Source of the DNA: a virus
Lineage: Duplodnaviria; Heunggongvirae; Uroviricota; Caudoviricetes
IMG/VR virus record: IMGVR_UViG_2574180227_000017
Reading direction: 5' to 3' (one strand)
Length of the DNA stretch: 12,061 nucleotides
Shown here: one piece after another, positions 2,636 through 11,487 of the stretch
Numbering within the stretch: the first letter of the stretch is position 1
Layout of the letters: each line of letters starts with the position of its first letter
The notes under the pieces: generated by a model
Database searches by the model: none
What the model was told of the DNA's origin: nothing
Seen by the model: the letters and a program-made list of their open reading frames with translations, nothing else
Position numbers and translations under genes: made by a program

Positions 2636-3194
2636 TATGGTTGCCGTAAATCATATACCACACCTTGTACACACACAAACGGCCTTTGTGTGGCGTTTTC
2701 TGGCACTGAGTGCCGGAGAAAAAAACCGCTTGATCGCCACCAGCAAAAATGGCTATGATTCCCGCGCACCTCATAAAACGGGTGTCGGGATTAGCCTCCT
2801 GAAAACAACTGAAGCGCACAGCACGCGCCCCGCGTGTTTTTTTGTGCCGCATAGTCACACCTTATCAATGGTGGGCTGTACGGGGGCGGAGCAATCCGCG
2901 CCGGTTTCTTCAGTGTCCGGTAAGGCTAACCCTGTACAGTCCGCCACCAGCGAAATTAGCCTTTTGCGTGGCGGTTATCTTAACCACACTGAGGAGGCTG
3001 CCAACATGGCTACTATCCCTACCCTTGTACATTCTCAAACCGCATTTATCTGGCGCTTTATCATCTTTGGCGCGTCAGAATCTCAAATCATCCACGTAAC
3101 CGCCTGGACGGAACGCGAAGCGCGTAGCCGTTGCCCGTCCGGTTGTGTTGCTGTATTCGCCGCCCGTATTCGTCAGGGGTCACATCATGCGTAA
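2636..3194 (+). CDS. hypothetical protein with C-terminal ~60-aa module, possibly Icd-like (internal SD+ATG at 3006 could express the module alone)
   Basis: SD TAGGAG before ATG 2636 and SD GAGGAGG before in-frame ATG 3006. C-terminal module MATIPTLVHSQTAFIWRF...TEREAR...FAARIRQG is paralogous to the C-terminus of ORF 3187-3654, and a degenerate copy (HLVHTQTAFVWRF) sits near the N-terminus. Differences between copies are enriched for synonymous changes. Confidence 0.4.
2822..2843 (+). terminator. intrinsic terminator-like hairpin inside the leader/ORF (possible attenuator)
   Basis: CACGCG-CCC-CGCGTG followed by TTTTTTT. A related G-TTTTTTT-GTG element recurs at about 3310-3325. Confidence 0.45.
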
Positions 3195-3654
3195 AAACCG
3201 CTTGCAAAAAATTATCACGGGGCTGTATGCTTCCCCCGTCGCCCACATGGCGACCGGGTTTGACAGCCTGAATACTACAGCGGACAGCCGCTTACATTCC
3301 GATATGCGGTTTTTTTGTGTCCGTAAACCTACCCATACCCGCATTATGGCGGGGCGTAACGGGGGAGCCTTTGCGCTCGCTGGTTCCTGTAGTGCCAGTC
3401 TGTCAACCCTGTTACGTCTCGCCACCATGTTTGACAGCGTAGTAGCGAGACTCCTTAATTTCACTACAGGAGCCTTTCACATGGCTGTATTCGCACGCCC
3501 TTATTTTGTCTGGCGCTTTATGCAGTGCCTGACAGACAGCATTGCAATATTCACCGTTACCGCTGCCACTGAGCGCGAAGCACGTGCACAGCTGCCGCAC
3601 GCACATCTGATTTTTGTCGCCCGTATTCGTCAGGGGGAAACCTATGCACAATAA
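3187..3654 (+). CDS. hypothetical protein with C-terminal ~58-aa module, possibly Icd-like (internal SD+ATG at 3481)
   Basis: ATG 3187 overlaps the stop of the upstream ORF. C-terminal module MAVFARPYFVWRF...TEREAR...FVARIRQG is paralogous to 3006-3194. The N-terminal half has poor protein-like composition and may be RNA rather than coding. Confidence 0.4.
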   Translation: MRKNRLQKIITGLYASPVAHMATGFDSLNTTADSRLHSDMRFFCVRKPTHTRIMAGRNGGAFALAGSCSASLSTLLRLATMFDSVVARLLNFTTGAFHMAVFARPYFVWRFMQCLTDSIAIFTVTAATEREARAQLPHAHLIFVARIRQGETYAQ

Positions 3655-4096: not shown

Positions 4097-4396
4097 ATGA
4101 AACTTAAATATTCTGGCTTAACTGCCAGTGGCAACACTCACCCTAAATTTACGCGCGGTGATATTTACCGCGACCAGTACGGCGGCACGGTAATGATTAA
4201 GGGCGTGGCGGGACGGTGCGTAACTTACCGCCGTGAAGGTTACGAATATGATTGCGTGATGCCTGTTTATCAGTTCCGGCGTGATTTTTCTCTGGTACAG
4301 ACCGCGCCGCATAACGTGCCCACCAGCAGGGAGAAAGCACGCGCCAATATTCAGGAAATAAAAAAGATGCTTAACGTATTCAGGGGTAAAAAATGA
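4097..4396 (+). CDS. hypothetical protein (99 aa), translationally coupled to the primase gene
   Basis: SD GGAGAA upstream. Stop overlaps the primase ATG (ATGA at 4393-4396). Confidence 0.55.
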   Translation: MKLKYSGLTASGNTHPKFTRGDIYRDQYGGTVMIKGVAGRCVTYRREGYEYDCVMPVYQFRRDFSLVQTAPHNVPTSREKARANIQEIKKMLNVFRGKK

Positions 4397-6141
4397 AACT
4401 GGCACCGAACGTAAAAAAACAGCCACGCGGAATAAAACACAAAGACACAGAGGTAATTATCTTTGCGGGTAGTGATGCCTGGTCACACGCGGAACAATGG
4501 CAGGAGCAGGATGGCCCCGCATCCGGCGATAATGTGCCGCCTGTGTGGCTTGGGCCAAATCAGCTTGCCGAACTTGATGCACTGAAAATTGTTCCGGATG
4601 GAAAAAAACGCGTAAGGCTGTACCAGGCCGGAGAACTGGATTTGGTGGAGACCAAAAAGATTGGTCAGAAGCTGGCGGCGGCAGATATTCAGGACGCAAA
4701 TTTTTACCCCGAAGGAATGCACGTCCAGAAGTGTGAAAACTGGCGGCGCTATCTGAATGCTGAGCGTGAAAATATTGCCGCAGGGCTTACCATGCCGGAG
4801 CAGAAAAATACGCAACTGGCACAAATGGCAGACAGTGAGCGCGCGCAGCTGCTTGCCGAGCGCTTTGATGGCGTTTGTGTGCATCCGGAAAGTGAAATCG
4901 TTCACGTATGGCGCGGCGGGGTATGGTGTCCGGTCAGCACAATGGAACTTAGCCGCGAAATGGTGGCGATCTATTCAGAGCACAGGGCCACTTTCAGCAA
5001 GCGCGTAATCAATAACGCCGTGGAAGCGTTAAAAGTTATTGCCGAACCAATGGGCGAGCCGTCCGGCGATTTGCTGCCGTTTGCCAATGGTGCGCTTGAC
5101 CTGAAAACGGGGGAATTTTCCCCGCACACGCCGGAGAACTGGATCACCACGCACAACGGCATTGAGTACACGCCACCAGCACCAGGGGAGAACATCCGCG
5201 ATAACGCGCCAAACTTTCATAAATGGCTTGAGCACGCAGCCGGAAAAGACCCGCGCAAGATGATGCGTATATGTGCCGCGCTGTACATGATTATGGCGAA
5301 CCGGTACGACTGGCAGATGTTTATTGAGGCCACCGGAGACGGCGGGAGCGGCAAAAGTACATTCACCCACATCGCCAGCCTTTTAGCGGGGAAACAAAAC
5401 ACGGTAAGCGCGGAAATGACATCGCTTGATGATGCTGGTGGGCGTGCGCAGGTTGTCGGGAGTCGTCTTATCGTCCTGGCAGACCAGCCGAAATATACAG
5501 GCGAAGGCACGGGCATCAAGAAAATCACGGGCGGCGACCCCGTGGAAATCAACCCGAAATATGAAAAGCGTTTCACTACGGTAATCAGGGCGGTGGTGCT
5601 GGCGACCAATAACAACCCGATGATATTCACCGAACGGGCCGGAGGCGTGTCACGTCGTCGGGTTATTTTCCGCTTCGACAATATCGTAAGCGAGGCAGAA
5701 AAAGACAGGGAGCTACCGGAAAAGATCGCGGCTGAAATCCCTGTCATTATCCGCCGCTTGCTGGCGAACTTTACCGACCCTGAGAAGGCACGGGCTTTAC
5801 TACTGGAACAGCGTGACGGTGATGAAGCTCTGGCAATAAAGCAACAGACGGATCCGGTTATTGAGTTTTGCCAGTTCCTGAATTTTCTGGAGGAAGCGCG
5901 CGGCCTGATGATGGGTGGCGGTGGCGATTCAGTGAAGTATACGACCAGGAACAGCCTTTACCGCGTCTATCTGGCGTTTATGGCGTACGCAGGCAGGAGC
6001 AAACCGCTAAACGTAAATGACTTTGGCAAGGCTATGAAGCCAGCCGCGAAAGTTTACGGACATGAATATATTACGCGGAAAGTTAAGGGAGTAACGCAGA
6101 CTAACGCAATAACAACAGACGATTGCGACGCGTTTTTATAA
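4393..6141 (+). CDS. replication primase/helicase, P4-alpha-like (D5_N-type domain plus SF3 P-loop NTPase)
   Basis: 582-aa ORF. Walker A GDGGSGKST, Walker B-like LIVLADQ, motif C VVLATNNNP. Followed immediately by an iteron array, as in P4 alpha/ori and PICI pri-rep/ori. Confidence 0.9.
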   Translation: MKLAPNVKKQPRGIKHKDTEVIIFAGSDAWSHAEQWQEQDGPASGDNVPPVWLGPNQLAELDALKIVPDGKKRVRLYQAGELDLVETKKIGQKLAAADIQDANFYPEGMHVQKCENWRRYLNAERENIAAGLTMPEQKNTQLAQMADSERAQLLAERFDGVCVHPESEIVHVWRGGVWCPVSTMELSREMVAIYSEHRATFSKRVINNAVEALKVIAEPMGEPSGDLLPFANGALDLKTGEFSPHTPENWITTHNGIEYTPPAPGENIRDNAPNFHKWLEHAAGKDPRKMMRICAALYMIMANRYDWQMFIEATGDGGSGKSTFTHIASLLAGKQNTVSAEMTSLDDAGGRAQVVGSRLIVLADQPKYTGEGTGIKKITGGDPVEINPKYEKRFTTVIRAVVLATNNNPMIFTERAGGVSRRRVIFRFDNIVSEAEKDRELPEKIAAEIPVIIRRLLANFTDPEKARALLLEQRDGDEALAIKQQTDPVIEFCQFLNFLEEARGLMMGGGGDSVKYTTRNSLYRVYLAFMAYAGRSKPLNVNDFGKAMKPAAKVYGHEYITRKVKGVTQTNAITTDDCDAFL

Positions 6142-6159
6142 TTTTTTGTAATTGCTGTC

Positions 6160-6390
6160 TACCCTGTCTACCTGAGTAAAGAAAAATACATTTAATTCAG
6201 TATATTAACTTAGGTAGACAGCCTTTTTTCACTGTCTACCTACTATCTACCCTCTCTACCTGATTTTACCTGAATCAGACAGGGAGGTAGATACGGGGTA
6301 GATAGTGGATAAAAGCACTCTACCCCGCTGAAAGCCGCGCCATTACTGGTATGAGGGCCACTAAGGTAGATAAGGTAGACAAGGGGAGGC
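6160..6390. repeat. replication origin iterons: about 11 copies of the 8-bp motif TNTCTACC / GGTAGANA in both orientations, plus an AT-rich segment
   Basis: Copies at about 6164, 6172, 6213 (inverted), 6235, 6243, 6251, 6287 (inverted), 6297 (inverted), 6320, 6366 (inverted), 6375 (inverted). AT-rich stretch 6186-6212. Confidence 0.7.
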
Positions 6391-7142: not shown

Positions 7143-7165
7143 AGCCGGAGCAATCCGGCTTTTTT
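7143..7165 (+). terminator. rho-independent terminator
   Basis: AGCCGGA-GCAA-TCCGGCT followed by TTTTTT. Near-identical copy at 9584-9607. Confidence 0.7.
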
Positions 7166-7346
7166 ACGGGTCCTCCTGGCGGGGTGGGCCTGAACACGGG
7201 GCGGGAGGCGCGGAAAAAAGCGCATTTTTGTGATTTTATCGTCATCATCATCATGAGCGTAATTTATTGTTTTTAATTGTTTTGATGCAAAAAAGATGAT
7301 GGTTTTGGTTAATTTTCGTTCGACATCTTTGCAGGCAGATAAAAAA

Positions 7347-7377: not shown

Positions 7378-7458
7378 TTTTGCATATGAGGCTTTTTGGT
7401 GCACTGACACACATGATCGGGATAATCATTTCATAATTTGCAACGCAATTCAATATCA

Positions 7459-7510
7459 TTGCACAAAATGCAATCATGATTATAATCATAACTGGATGAA
7501 CATCCAGTTA
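7459..7510 (+). promoter_or_regulatory. capsid-operon promoter (TTGCAC 7459-7464, 16-nt spacer, TATAAT 7481-7486) with palindromic operator ATAACTGGATG-AA-CATCCAGTTAT (7487-7510)
   Basis: Read from the sequence. The -10 lies inside the palindrome ATGATTATAATCAT. The operator overlapping the predicted start has the form CTG-N10-CAG. Confidence 0.45.
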
Positions 7511-7542
7511 TGATTTTTTAAGTCAAAGAGGAATTTCTTACT

Positions 7543-7749
7543 ATGGCTGAAGAGAAAAAAGGCGGTGTTTCGGTGTACATAAGCCCCGACATCGTGAAGG
7601 CGCTCAAGGAACGCCACCAGCAGAACGTAAAAGCAGGCATTGCGGCAGGACTTGATCCGCTGGCGATGGTTGAGCCGTCAACAGGCTGGCAGGTACGCGC
7701 CTATTTACGCGCGGCGCTGGGTATGAATCAGGTTCACGGGGGTGAATAA
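7543..7749 (+). CDS. hypothetical protein (68 aa), first gene of the capsid operon
   Basis: SD AGAGG upstream. Stop overlaps the capsid gene start (TAATG at 7747-7751). Confidence 0.5.
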   Translation: MAEEKKGGVSVYISPDIVKALKERHQQNVKAGIAAGLDPLAMVEPSTGWQVRAYLRAALGMNQVHGGE

Positions 7750-8804
7750 TGACAGTAAAAGCAATAGCACTTAACACTAACCAGCTTTTTGCGTACCTGA
7801 ATCGCGAGGATATTGCGGAATTTAAATTCAGTCCGCTGTTTACCGCGCTGTTTTTCCCGAACGTGGCGACATTCAACACACAGGACATCATGTTAGATAA
7901 CCTGGATATTGAAGAAGTCACTATGTCGGCGTTTTGTTCGCCTATGGTTGGTAGCCAGGTTCAGCGCGATAAAGGGTACGAAACAAGCATTATTCGCCCT
8001 GGCTACATGAAGCCAAAACACGAAATCGATCCATTAAAAACAATAATGCGCATGGCTGGAGAAGATCCGGCACAGCTTAACGACCCTACCTACCGCCGTA
8101 TGCGCCTGATTACTGGCAACATGCGCCGCCAGATAAACGCCATTAAAGCGCGCGTGGAATGGCTGGCGGTGAATGCGATAACGACCGGAAAAAACATCAT
8201 TGAGGGCGAAGGCATAGAACGCTATGAAATCGACTGGAAAATACCGGAAAACTGCATCATAGAGCAGGCCAAGGGTAAAAAATGGTCTGAGCAGGATAAA
8301 GACATACACGACCCAATATATGACATTGAACTATACGCAGATCAGGCAGGTTGCCCCGCCAACGTCATGATTATGGGCGTTGATGTATGGCGCATGTTAC
8401 GCAGCTTTAAAAAATTCCGTGAACTGTACGATCTCTCCCGTGGTTCAGAATCCGCCGCAGAGCTGGCATGTAAAAACCTGGGAGAAGTGGTGAGCTTTAA
8501 AGGCTATCTTGGTGATCTGGCCCTTATCGTCTATTCCGGCAAATACACTGACAGCGACGGCACAGAAAAATATTTCCTTGAGCCTGATTTGCTGGTCCTG
8601 GGCAACACCAACAATAAAGGGCTGGTGGCCTATGGTGCGATTATGGAACAGGAAGCGGTAAGAACGGGCGCAACGCAAAACATGTTTTACCCGAAAAACT
8701 GGATTGAAGACGGCGATCCGGCGATTGAGTACGTGCAGACACACAGCGCACCGCAGCCTGTTCCGGCAGATATTCGCAAATTTGTTACCGTCAAAATTGG
8801 TTAA
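7749..8804 (+). CDS. major capsid protein, lambda gpE family
   Basis: 351 aa. Multiple blocks align with lambda gpE as recalled: FKFSPLFTALFF vs FKFDPLFLRLFF, PGYMKPKHEIDP vs PGYVKPKHEVNP, EDPAQLNDPTYRRMRLI vs EDPQNLADPAYRRRRII, LGDLALIVYSGKY vs YGDVAIVVYSGQY, YPKNWIEDGDPA vs YPKNWVTTGDPA. Confidence 0.92.
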   Translation: MTVKAIALNTNQLFAYLNREDIAEFKFSPLFTALFFPNVATFNTQDIMLDNLDIEEVTMSAFCSPMVGSQVQRDKGYETSIIRPGYMKPKHEIDPLKTIMRMAGEDPAQLNDPTYRRMRLITGNMRRQINAIKARVEWLAVNAITTGKNIIEGEGIERYEIDWKIPENCIIEQAKGKKWSEQDKDIHDPIYDIELYADQAGCPANVMIMGVDVWRMLRSFKKFRELYDLSRGSESAAELACKNLGEVVSFKGYLGDLALIVYSGKYTDSDGTEKYFLEPDLLVLGNTNNKGLVAYGAIMEQEAVRTGATQNMFYPKNWIEDGDPAIEYVQTHSAPQPVPADIRKFVTVKIG

Positions 8805-8815
8805 CGGTGGATTCT

Positions 8816-9151
8816 ATGAACACTCCATACATTGAGTTATTTGCAGGCAGTCAGCAGGTATCAACGACGCTGGTACATTTTGCCGCTGATGCTGGCGTTA
8901 TTCAGGAATTTACCCCGCTGATGCTGGCGGACAATGGCGAGTTTAAGCCGTGGGATGGTCAGGAATCTGGCAAGGCTGTTTATCTGACCTCGTACCCCGT
9001 TGACACGTCGACGCAGAAATCAGCACAGTGCTATAAGACGGGGATATTCAATATCGCCGCCGTTAACTGGCCTGAGAGCGTCGACACCGATGCGAAAAAA
9101 TGCGCCGCCTTTGCGGGTTCTGGCGTATCCGTTCAGCCGCTGGCCCGATAA
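8816..9151 (+). CDS. head decoration protein, lambda gpD family (alternative GTG start at 8807)
   Basis: About 111 aa. Conserved gpD blocks TPLML, WDG, YKTGIF (lambda YKSGTF), WPE, KK.AAFAG. SD GGTGGA before ATG 8816. Confidence 0.85.
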   Translation: MNTPYIELFAGSQQVSTTLVHFAADAGVIQEFTPLMLADNGEFKPWDGQESGKAVYLTSYPVDTSTQKSAQCYKTGIFNIAAVNWPESVDTDAKKCAAFAGSGVSVQPLAR

Positions 9152-9163
9152 GCAGGGGGAACG

Positions 9164-9577
9164 ATGGCAACGAATGAAAGCATCATGGCGCTACCGCTGG
9201 CGAGTAAATTTAAAGCCGAAGCGCGGGCAATGGCTGACAGAGGGTTATCAACCTACGAGGCCGTATATCAACTCAACAAACTGGAAGAACAGGACAAGCC
9301 GCGCGCTGATGCGATTATGGCGCTTCATGAACATAACGACTATCAGCCGCTGTTACGTGCAATGGCAAACGTGCCATGTATTAGCGTCGATAATGCTCGT
9401 GAAATCCTGAACATGACCATAGAGCAGGAGCGCCCAAAGGTTGCACCAGAGCTTACCGCAGCCTTTGAAAACTTTATGGACATGCACAGCCCGCAAGCCG
9501 TATCAGCTGGCATGGCGTACGATGGCAGAAACCAGGGCGATGACGGCGACATCGATCGCATACTGAAAACCATCTGA
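9164..9577 (+). CDS. hypothetical protein (137 aa), last gene before cos
   Basis: ORF with SD GGGGGAA upstream, followed by a terminator. Similar in size and position to a head-completion or packaging accessory protein, but no motif recognised. Confidence 0.5.
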   Translation: MATNESIMALPLASKFKAEARAMADRGLSTYEAVYQLNKLEEQDKPRADAIMALHEHNDYQPLLRAMANVPCISVDNAREILNMTIEQERPKVAPELTAAFENFMDMHSPQAVSAGMAYDGRNQGDDGDIDRILKTI

Positions 9578-9583
9578 GACAAG

Positions 9584-9607
9584 GCCGGAGAAATCCGGCT
9601 TTTTTTT
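9584..9607 (+). terminator. rho-independent terminator
   Basis: GCCGGA-GAAA-TCCGGC followed by TTTTTTTT. Copy of the terminator at 7143. Confidence 0.7.
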
Positions 9608-9608
9608 A

Positions 9609-9675
9609 CGGGTCCTTTCCGGCATATGGACCCGTTACGGGGCGGCGACCTCGCGGTTTTTCGCTATTTATGAGC
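9609..9675 (+). other. cos site: cosN 12-nt cohesive-end sequence GGGCGGCGACCT at 9640-9651 with lambda-like flanks
   Basis: ACGGGTCCTTTCCGG...GTTACG-GGGCGGCGACCT-CGCGGTTTTTCGCTATTTATGA matches the lambda right-end/left-end junction as recalled (…GTTACG | GGGCGGCGACCT | CGCGGGTTTTCGCTATTTATGA…). Sequence after about 9675 diverges from lambda cosB. Confidence 0.75.
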
Positions 9676-9799
9676 CTTTTCAGGGGGGTGGTGGTGGTTT
9701 TGTTGTTTGCTCTATCTTTATGAATGAAAAGGGAAAGATGCAAACAATACACCAACCTGAAGCAGTAATTAAGTTGGTGTATTAATGAAATCGCACCTG

Positions 9800-10327
9800 A
9801 TGAACAAAAAAAACATGGCGAAAAGCTGCCGTGTAAGTGCGACAGCGTTCGACAAGTGGGGAGTGACTCCCGTTGAACGTAAAGGCCGTGAGGCGTTTTA
9901 TGATGTTGCCAGCGTGATAGACAATAGGGTTAACAATGCAATTAGCCAGCTTACAAACGACAAAGGCGATATTGACGATGATGAACTATTACGAGTCAGG
10001 ATCAGATTACTGACAGCGCAGGCGGAGGCGCAGGAGCTTAAAAACGAGCGCGAACGAGGCGACGTTATTGATACAGGGTTTTGCCTGTACGCGCTTTCAA
10101 AGCTGGCGAGCCAGATTTCTTCAATCATGGACAGCATCCCGCTTACTATGCAAAGGAGCTTTCCACACATTACCCCAGCCATGCTGGATGGGCTTAAAAG
10201 GGAAGTGGTTAAAGCCTGTAATGCCAGTGCCAGAGTTGCCGACAACCTCCCACAGATACTGGCTGATTACTTGAAAGAAACAACCGGAAACGTACCGGAA
10301 AAGTTGCAGCAGAATAAAGATAAGTAA
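9800..10327 (+). CDS. terminase small subunit, lambda Nu1 family (start taken at MNKKN by alignment; ORF track start 9785)
   Basis: Aligns with lambda Nu1 over its full length: NKK start, YD.A.VI, RLLTAQAEAQELKNERERGDVIDTGFCLYALSKLASQISSIMDSIPLTMQRSFP vs RLTRAQADAQELKNARDSAEVVETAFCTFVLSRIAGEIASILDGLPLSVQRRFP. The N-terminal DNA-recognition segment is the most diverged. Confidence 0.8.
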   Translation: MNKKNMAKSCRVSATAFDKWGVTPVERKGREAFYDVASVIDNRVNNAISQLTNDKGDIDDDELLRVRIRLLTAQAEAQELKNERERGDVIDTGFCLYALSKLASQISSIMDSIPLTMQRSFPHITPAMLDGLKREVVKACNASARVADNLPQILADYLKETTGNVPEKLQQNKDK

Positions 10328-10677: not shown

Positions 10678-10962
10678 TTCTGAATGGTGATAATCACCAC
10701 GCCCAATCGTGACGGAGAGTGACAGCCAGTGACACGCCGTGACAAAAGACGGTTTAACCGTTAATTAAAAATCGACGGGATTTTGTGTTTTCCGGACGAC
10801 GTAGCCAACGTCATTTTTTAGCGAAAAATTCTGATTAAGGTCATTGTCTGAATGGTCATAATGACCACGCAGACCATCAAGGCAACCATAACGATTTTCG
10901 TTACGGTTGATGTGTGCCTTCGTCCGGCATTCGGACGATATAAGGGATGGTCATAATGACCA
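10678..10962. repeat. three copies of a palindromic motif TGAATGGT(G/C)ATAAT(G/C)ACCAC (10681-10700, 10848-10870, 10945-10964)
   Basis: Near-identical 20-24 bp units read directly. Cores TGGTGATAATCACCA and TGGTCATAATGACCA (x2) are imperfect palindromes about an odd centre. Confidence 0.6.
10709..10743 (+). repeat. four GTGAC pentamers at exact 10-bp spacing (10709, 10719, 10729, 10739)
   Basis: GTGACGGAGA GTGACAGCCA GTGACACGCC GTGACAAAAG. Helically phased direct repeats. Confidence 0.6.
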
Positions 10963-11112
10963 CTCCTACAGAACAGGTAAAACCCACCAGCCTGATTAAC
11001 AGTTAACCGGAAAAAAAATCCGGCATGGGGGGGGAGTGGTTAGCCACGAACAACGAATAAGCTGGACACCGCGCCCCCTCTCACGCAGAGAAAAAATTAC
11101 CGTTTCGTAGTA

Positions 11113-11276: not shown

Positions 11277-11487
11277 GAACATCCACCAGCTTAAAAACGA
11301 ATGAGCGAAAAAAAATCCAGGTAGAATCATGGAAGTCGCTAGGGCAATCGCCGTTTAAATTGTGCATTTTTTCAGCAAATTATTTTAGTTATACGTTTGG
11401 TTATACGGTTTAAAAGTTGAATCAATAATATTTATTAAAATCATGCGGTTACATGCTAAATTAAACTACTCTCGTGAATCCCAAGAA

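Follow-up and report, generated by a model that had tools for sequence, protein, structure and literature searches.

What use does a phage satellite have for the shell proteins of a lambda-type head? The question is raised by a stretch of 12,061 nucleotides (IMG/VR record IMGVR_UViG_2574180227_000017, here called the window) that contains a cos-type Gram-negative phage-inducible chromosomal island (PICI) of the EcCICFT073 family. Between positions 7543 and 9577 this island carries genes for a major capsid protein (E) and a decoration protein (D), flanked by open reading frames (ORFs) of 68 and 137 residues. A first, sequence-only reading of the locus had proposed that the capsid protein builds a smaller shell on helper-supplied portal and protease. 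The puzzle posed by these genes is that their deletion has no known effect, yet they are kept intact by selection in a lineage distinct from every known phage. The four genes are as follows:

7543-7749, + strand: orf68, 68 residues, ortholog of c1498, translationally coupled to the capsid gene; PHROG 3255
7749-8804, + strand: major capsid protein E of the lambda gpE family, 351 residues, ortholog of c1499; PF03864, PDB 3BQW
8816-9151, + strand: head decoration protein D of the gpD/SHP family, 111 residues, ortholog of c1500; PF02924, with an alternative GTG start at 8807
9164-9577, + strand: orf137, 137 residues, ortholog of c1501, stand-alone truncated scaffold-like protein with similarity to phage 21 gp6

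We identify E by homology as a full-length major capsid protein of the lambda gpE family with the HK97 fold. The protein matches Pfam PF03864 (Phage_cap_E) at E = 7.7e-48 and 163.7 bits (cut-off 22.9) and PHROG 29 at 2e-106, and is 42% identical to lambda gpE over 328 residues with 2 gapped positions (E = 2e-90). Its closest structural match is PDB 3BQW (E = 2e-226, ~94% identity over 350 residues), a 'putative capsid protein of prophage' from E. coli CFT073 that published work uses as an experimental HK97-type structure for the PF03864 family; the lambda structure 7VI9 is matched at E = 1e-79. Because the alignment with gpE is colinear and gapless after residue 25, with indels in the N-terminus alone, the geometry of the protein does not appear to be altered. 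Twenty residues are fixed differently between the satellite and phage capsid clades, and 15 of them fall within the segments 128-156 and 330-342 (binomial P about 1e-10). This clustering suggests a lineage-specific surface, and the two segments are candidates for a lineage-specific interface with D or with scaffold.

D is similarly recognizable as a decoration (cement) protein of the gpD/SHP type, for which binding to heads is predicted. It matches PF02924 (HDPD) at E = 3.7e-18 and 66.2 bits (cut-off 29.1) and, in the PDB, the SHP protein of phage 21 (1TD0, E = 6e-14) and lambda gpD (1C5E, E = 1.4e-9); the alignment with lambda gpD covers 76 residues at 37% identity (E = 6e-14). The gpE-like and gpD-like proteins named in the sequence-only reading are thus true homologs by both family and pairwise alignment, and the + strand ORFs of 68, 351 and 137 residues that it described are present at the coordinates above. 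Its decoration ORF of 114 residues, running from a GTG at 8807 to 9151, is the one to be amended. The start is most likely the ATG at 8816, giving 111 residues, since a GGTGG Shine-Dalgarno sequence lies 5 nt upstream of it, the orthologs all begin M-x-T-P-Y, and the RefSeq protein has 111 residues. Fusions of the neighboring genes have each been seen once in metagenome/assembly data, a 463-residue E-D protein (P0030) and a 250-residue D-orf137 protein (L016), and either could be a sequencing error.

The last gene of the module, orf137, we take from its alignments to encode a shortened scaffold homolog of the phage-21 gp6/Nu3 type. Residues 49-131 align with residues 115-192 of the 200-residue phage 21 scaffold gp6 (37% identity, BLASTP E = 3e-11; hhalign probability 96%), and further matches are to the C-terminus of the Gifsy-1 gpC homolog (E = 1e-8) and to the C-terminal region of PHROG 53, 'head maturation protease' (7e-10). 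A profile search of 1.8 billion representatives returned satellite orthologs and gp6-type scaffolds only, one of the latter being 51% identical to gp6 over its full length. The protein is made up of two 44-residue repeats and a C-terminal tail, where the phage scaffolds have three repeats, and natural 93-residue variants have lost exactly one repeat. The tail carries a motif, FxxFMxxHSP, that is common to the scaffold/protease proteins of phage 21 and of Gifsy-type phages. AlphaFold2 models the protein as all-helical with low confidence (pLDDT 45). The gene is not nested in frame in the 3' part of a protease gene, there being none in the window, but is a stand-alone ORF 3' of D. No similarity of orf137 to lambda gpC/Nu3 or FI was found, and the module is accordingly assigned to the phage 21/Gifsy type. 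In agreement with this assignment, E and D are slightly closer to phage 21 and the Gifsy phages. We considered and rejected the possibility that the two flanking ORFs are lambda gpW (68 residues) and gpFI (132 residues, after E in lambda), as neither shows similarity. The proposal that both are candidates for size-determination or assembly factors holds in part: for orf137 such a role is plausible by homology to the C-terminal part of phage-21-type scaffolds, whilst for orf68 no significant match speaks to it.

The remainder of a lambda-type head is missing. Neither the ORFs of the window nor searches of them against Pfam and PHROG and by pairwise comparison yielded a homolog of the portal, protease, large terminase, W, FII or FI. 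Likewise, the gene set of capsid-forming PICIs (cf-PICIs), that is, portal, protease, head-tail adaptor, connector and large terminase, was not found in the window, an HNH gene not having been searched for. Portal, protease, scaffold and head-completion genes had all been listed as absent in the sequence-only reading; this stands for all of them save the scaffold, which is present as orf137. Among 80 related contigs, matches to portal, protease and large terminase are partial and occur in only 2-3 contigs, and full-length W, FI and FII occur in one single contig; we read these matches as probably adjacent prophage sequence.

To place the module in evolutionary context we compared eleven copies from E. 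coli, Salmonella, Serratia and Edwardsiella and a further 80 from IMG/VR. E and D are intact and in E-then-D order in all eleven, although integrases, replication modules and downstream genes differ. This order is opposite to that of lambda, phage 21 and Gifsy-1, in all of which the protease/scaffold gene is followed by D and then E, so that the reversal first remarked on relative to lambda is real and extends to the two other phages. In the IMG/VR copies E is a full-length ORF in 80 of 80, and D is full-length in 77, the other three comprising one fusion to orf137 and two genes cut by contig ends. The mean ratio of nonsynonymous to synonymous substitution rates (dN/dS) in this sample is 0.13 for E (0.12-0.14 overall) and 0.10 for D (0.06-0.13 overall), below the values for the satellite's own ssb (0.18) and small terminase (0.17); it is 0.28 for orf137 and 0.25 for orf68 (0.25-0.6 overall). 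These values argue that E and D are held by purifying selection.

The satellite E proteins form one clade, within which they are 50-95% identical, and are 38-46% identical to the capsid proteins of lambda, phage 21, Gifsy-1 and an Edwardsiella helper prophage. Among 50,697 phage records there is no capsid protein more than 47% identical to satellite E. The D tree likewise splits satellites from phages and has its main satellite groupings in common with the E tree, making the two roughly congruent, and the divergences of E and D are correlated (r = 0.76). We conclude from these trees that the module genes constitute an old satellite-specific lineage that has been inherited as a unit. The earlier argument that the pair is not the decaying relic of a deleted head operon is upheld by the separate clade, the dN/dS of about 0.1 and the intact capsid gene in 80 of 80 copies. 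The module is also widespread, being present in 598 of 5,426 complete E. coli genomes. Two copies lie within prophages. An Edwardsiella E-D island (L012, 1786-11900) interrupts the portal gene of a lambdoid prophage; this prophage has retained a D-then-E pair of its own, whose proteins are only 34% (D) and 46% (E) identical to those of the island. A Salmonella E-D island (L011, 4292-13978) lies among the tail genes of a P2-like prophage.

The module is framed by sequence elements that bear on its expression and packaging:

7144-7215: second terminator-plus-cos unit, degenerate (cos2-like), with cosN GGGCGGGAGGCG, to the left of the module
7458-7487, + strand: candidate promoter of the capsid operon, with the palindrome ATTGCAcaaaaTGCAAT at the -35 position, then TATAAT
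9581-9610, + strand: intrinsic terminator at the end of the operon, made up of a GC-rich hairpin and a T-run after it
9610-9672: cos site, with a lambda-like segment left of cosN, an exact lambda cosN and a divergent cosB region

The four + strand ORFs are tightly packed and form an operon. The junction of orf68 and E reads GGGGGTGAATAATG, in which the orf68 stop codon overlaps the ATG of the capsid gene, and the remaining junctions are of 9-12 nt, each with a Shine-Dalgarno sequence. Promoter function at 7458-7487 is inferred from the sequence. The palindrome ATTGCAcaaaaTGCAAT, the TATAAT and a downstream ribosome-binding site, AAAGAGGAATTT, are conserved ahead of the module in the copies from E. 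coli, Salmonella and Edwardsiella. At 7484-7515, part of the lineage alone has an inverted repeat of 14 bp, perfect in sequence and accompanied by a T-run. The region 7458-7515 may thus be a late promoter under regulation, an operator or an attenuator. At the other end of the operon the lambda cosN 12-mer GGGCGGCGACCT is matched exactly at 9640-9651, and the segment to its left was identified by alignment with the lambda left end. The unit at 7144-7215 is an imperfect direct repeat of the segment 9584-9660, 2440 bp upstream of it, such that copies of the terminator-plus-cos repeat bracket the capsid operon on both sides. EcCICFT073 is reported to carry cos1 and cos2, to which the units at 9584-9660 and 7144-7215, respectively, probably correspond. 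The bracketing repeats resemble a cassette boundary. A near-cosN with one mismatch at 5529 lies inside the primase gene and was considered a chance occurrence.

What the module does has been addressed experimentally in the prototype island, EcCICFT073 of E. coli CFT073, whose module consists of c1498 (68 residues), c1499 (capsid, 351 residues), c1500 (decoration, 111 residues) and c1501 (137 residues) (PMC6092414), and this prototype is, of the two islands, the one for which helper-dependent induction, packaging and high-frequency transfer have been shown. Deletion of c1499 or c1500, prompted by the analogy to Ccm, left transfer by the resident helper and interference with lambda unchanged, and the DNA from lambda-induced EcCICFT073 particles was phage-sized (PMC6092414). 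In CFT073 with a tetA-marked island, replication was seen but no PICI monomer band. We suspected that the c1501::tetA marker had destroyed the scaffold-like gene, and rejected this because the arm of the tetA primer extends exactly to the stop codon of c1501, leaving the module intact and the island lengthened. A synthetic EcCICFT073 in which c1498-c1501 are replaced by cas9 is still packaged and delivered by a phi80 cos mutant (PMC10530653). Among 29 reference Gram-negative PICIs the late gene met with most often is an E homolog, present in 21 and described as dispensable for transfer (PMC10111431).

The reading that we tentatively favour, whilst holding it at somewhat less than an even chance, is one of accessory supply, in which the satellite adds bulk head parts that are assembled on helper portal and protease. 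Switched on in helper-induced growth from its own conserved promoter, the operon would supply the head components needed in bulk, namely E, D and scaffold. In a lambda head E is present at about 415 copies and D at a similar number, and scaffold is likewise needed in many copies; portal, protease, connectors and large terminase are required at about a dozen copies or fewer, or are catalytic. Satellite E, D and scaffold would assemble on the helper portal and protease into normal lambda-size heads, and the satellite small terminase, together with the helper large terminase, would package into these heads a concatemer of roughly four units (4 x about 11.47 kb = 45.9 kb). Since four units fill a lambda head, the packaged DNA would be phage-sized. 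The contribution would be accessory and redundant with helper E and D. Its benefit may lie in a larger supply of heads or in less reliance on the helper capsid genes, and it would not act as a size-determination device. For a satellite that multiplies its DNA and diverts packaging to itself, extra bulk shell material would be expected to bring the greatest gain. In favour of this reading are the family and structure matches, the scaffold homology of orf137, the operon structure, the selection on E and D, their separate lineage and constant order, the gapless alignment with gpE, the phage-sized DNA and dispensability in the prototype, and the unit length of about 11.47 kb.

Several observations weigh against such a supply role. 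No experiment places satellite E or D in any particle, and because deleting E, D or the whole module gave no measurable phenotype the role is without experimental support. At 42-46% identity to helper capsids, the compatibility of E with the helper portal, protease and scaffold is unproven. One E-D island (L011) lies inside a P2-like prophage, which presumably has a capsid protein of a different family, and several islands with both E and D lack orf137. Finally, EcCICFT073 genes other than c1503, expressed singly, had no visible effect on lambda.

Of the competing explanations, redirection of head size is the one that matches the default assumption in the field, and it was also that of the sequence-only reading. 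Here E, with orf137 as an alternative scaffold and D as a stabilizer, would build small heads that hold one 11.5-kb unit and exclude the helper genome. Precedent is provided by SaPIbov5, where the capsid-protein homolog Ccm makes small heads, by CpmB, which is an alternative scaffold, and by PmCI172, which has a capsid homolog and makes small heads; the scaffold C-terminal region in orf137 would also be in keeping with it. Tests in the prototype have not borne this idea out to date. No monomer band is seen in CFT073 when the module is intact, transfer is unchanged on deletion of c1499 or c1500, the island with cas9 in place of c1498-c1501 is still delivered, the four-unit length is a natural fit for a full lambda head, and E has no indels relative to gpE beyond the N-terminus. 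Full-size capsids with no dependence on these genes, which the sequence-only reading had itself named as the contrary outcome, are thus what these results indicate for EcCICFT073. There is one weakness in this record. Because the 2018 strain table lists a single lambda lysogen that carries the island, and in it the island is the c1499::cat version, which lacks the capsid gene (PMC6092414), the lambda DNA-size test was probably made without satellite E. Moreover, the window island is of the TerS (small terminase) type rather than the Rpp type of the prototype, and no helper was identified for the two TerS-encoding E. coli islands of the 2018 paper, IHE3034 and 18098 (PMC6092414). Even so, the small-shell idea is unsupported, and we regard size redirection as distinctly unlikely. 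A related state in which the island, with its small terminase, is a 'half capsid-forming' PICI, whose transducing particles would under native conditions have a shell of its own E, templated by the short scaffold, cemented by its D and built on a portal taken from the helper, possibly at a smaller size than that of the helper, would have been missed owing to the absence of the capsid gene from the lambda test, markers that alter island length and the lack of a studied helper for TerS-type islands. This we consider improbable, though it would be of more interest if true.

It is also possible to imagine that the module never enters transducing particles. E, D and the scaffold mimic could poison or titrate the head assembly of lambdoid phages, whether helpers or not, at the level of portal, protease or scaffold, to the benefit of host and satellite. 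PICIs in general interfere with helper phages, the FxxFMxxHSP motif shared by orf137 with phage scaffold/protease proteins makes competition conceivable, and purifying selection in the absence of a transfer phenotype would fit a defence role. However, c1503 (RppA) was the sole cloned EcCICFT073 gene to reduce lambda or phi80 plaques, and deletion of c1503 restored lambda plaquing where deletion of c1499 or c1500 brought no relief, and we accordingly think a decoy function unlikely. More doubtful still is the view that these are late genes recently captured from a helper prophage, with little function of their own or acting only as a backup for a helper head gene that the island has disrupted. 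Capture of late-gene clusters is documented, with a backup role suggested (PMC10111431), L012 sits in the portal gene of its prophage, and the duplicated terminator-plus-cos unit gives the module a cassette-like frame. The capsid and decoration proteins of satellites, however, form their own deep clades, in which those of L012 are only 46% and 34% identical to the counterparts in its host prophage; no phage record exceeds the 47% identity noted above; the low dN/dS and the intact E in all 80 further copies are not those of passengers; and the gene order is the reverse of that in phages. A passenger or backup module is therefore very unlikely.

The first gene of the operon, orf68, belongs to a family of unknown function (PHROG 3255). 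It is conserved 5' of E among the islands of the sublineage whose capsid identity is 62% or more, and L009-L011 lack it. AlphaFold2 predicts a coil-helix-helix structure (pLDDT 74), for which Foldseek returned nothing below E = 1 in the PDB or BFVD. The sequence pattern and this model are compatible with a ribbon-helix-helix regulator. Alleles of orf68 fall to 67% identity between islands with 95% identical capsid proteins (the window against L014 and L015), and its synonymous rate (dS) is ~2x that of neighboring genes, which suggests that recombination has replaced alleles where the operon begins.

The rest of the window fits the assignment of the element:

1-1242: integrase (domain match)
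1739-1945: AlpA-like ORF (weak AlpA match, E = 0.003; ortholog annotated PF05930)
2766-3429: P4-type C4/isrK immunity RNAs (Rfam, above gathering score)
4393-6141: D5-type primase (domain match)
6155-6263: iterons, 3' of the primase
9785-10327, + strand: full-length lambda Nu1-type small terminase, 180 residues (PF07471, E = 9e-23; PHROG 57, 2e-52)
11383-11408: attR

The island has the integrase, AlpA-type regulator, primase and iterons, one-directional genes, attachment (att) repeats and cos/terS of Gram-negative PICIs, which measure about 10-15 kb between their att repeats; the repeats here give a unit of ~11.47 kb. It adjoins tRNA-Pro between yejM and yejO, and the chromosomal yejO autotransporter gene follows attR in the window. 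The island also has a DUF4222 gene and the gene for a single-stranded DNA-binding protein (SSB). The small terminase is 34% identical to lambda Nu1 over 178 residues, the C-terminal part included. We considered whether it might instead be an Rpp protein, and rejected this on the basis of the full-length alignment with Nu1 and a PDB search that gave no match to Rpp structures. The Rfam matches at 2766-3429 comprise two C4 antisense RNAs (2864-2951 and 3342-3429), isrK (2766-2842) and a c4-a1b1 target (3225-3274), and constitute a P4-like immunity RNA system in duplicate. Between a 93-residue ORF and attR, at 10679-10965, a 24-nt unit with a palindrome (TCTGAATGGTGATAATCACCACGC) occurs three times; these copies could be protein-binding sites.

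The capsid module has been published before, including a crystal structure. New here are the scaffold homology of orf137/c1501, which has not been noted previously, the separate clades of E and D, the evidence for purifying selection, and the E-then-D order across genera. E. coli PICIs are very common and their capsid gene is treated as a core component, 'capsid morphogenesis' being one of the five core PICI components in SatelliteFinder. To explain why the module is kept would show whether there is a continuum between head-stealing and head-building satellites, and which parts a PICI-based delivery vehicle can safely give up in exchange for cargo. The identification of c1501/orf137 as a scaffold homolog offers a concrete handle on this problem.

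Compared with known systems, the window island is most like EcCICFT073, which has the same module gene lengths (68, 351, 111 and 137 residues) in the same order and the same backbone of about 11 kb (integrase, alpA, primase, ssb and two cos-like sites). The two differ 3' of cos, where EcCICFT073 has the 144-residue RppA and the window island the 180-residue Nu1-type small terminase. With the head proteins gpE and gpD of lambda and gp7 and SHP of phage 21, and with the C/Nu3 (gp5/gp6) scaffold, the island has in common homologous capsid, decoration and scaffold C-terminal regions, and its cosN is identical to that of lambda. Its E is 42-46% and its D 30-38% identical to theirs, the satellite proteins falling in a separate clade. 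The phage order is scaffold-D-E and that of the window E-D-scaffold; the phage scaffold is nested in the protease gene and has three repeats, whereas that of the window is stand-alone with two. The portal, protease, W, FI, FII and large terminase of these phages have no counterpart found in the window. Ccm of SaPIbov5 and CpmA/CpmB of SaPI1 are likewise satellite-encoded homologs of a helper capsid protein or scaffold. For these small capsids have been demonstrated, in contrast to the phage-size DNA and lack of a deletion phenotype for the EcCICFT073-type module. The cf-PICIs, exemplified by EcCIEDL933, also combine an int-alpA-rep backbone with a capsid protein of their own. Their capsid genes form a group separate from those of PICIs, and of the head genes the window has E, D, the scaffold-like protein and the small terminase only. 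Finally, PICIs embedded in their helpers, with a 'late zone' of genes, have been described (PMC10111431), and L012 is such an embedded island. That study stresses capture from helpers, whereas the E-D pair described here appears to be an old satellite lineage and not a recent capture.

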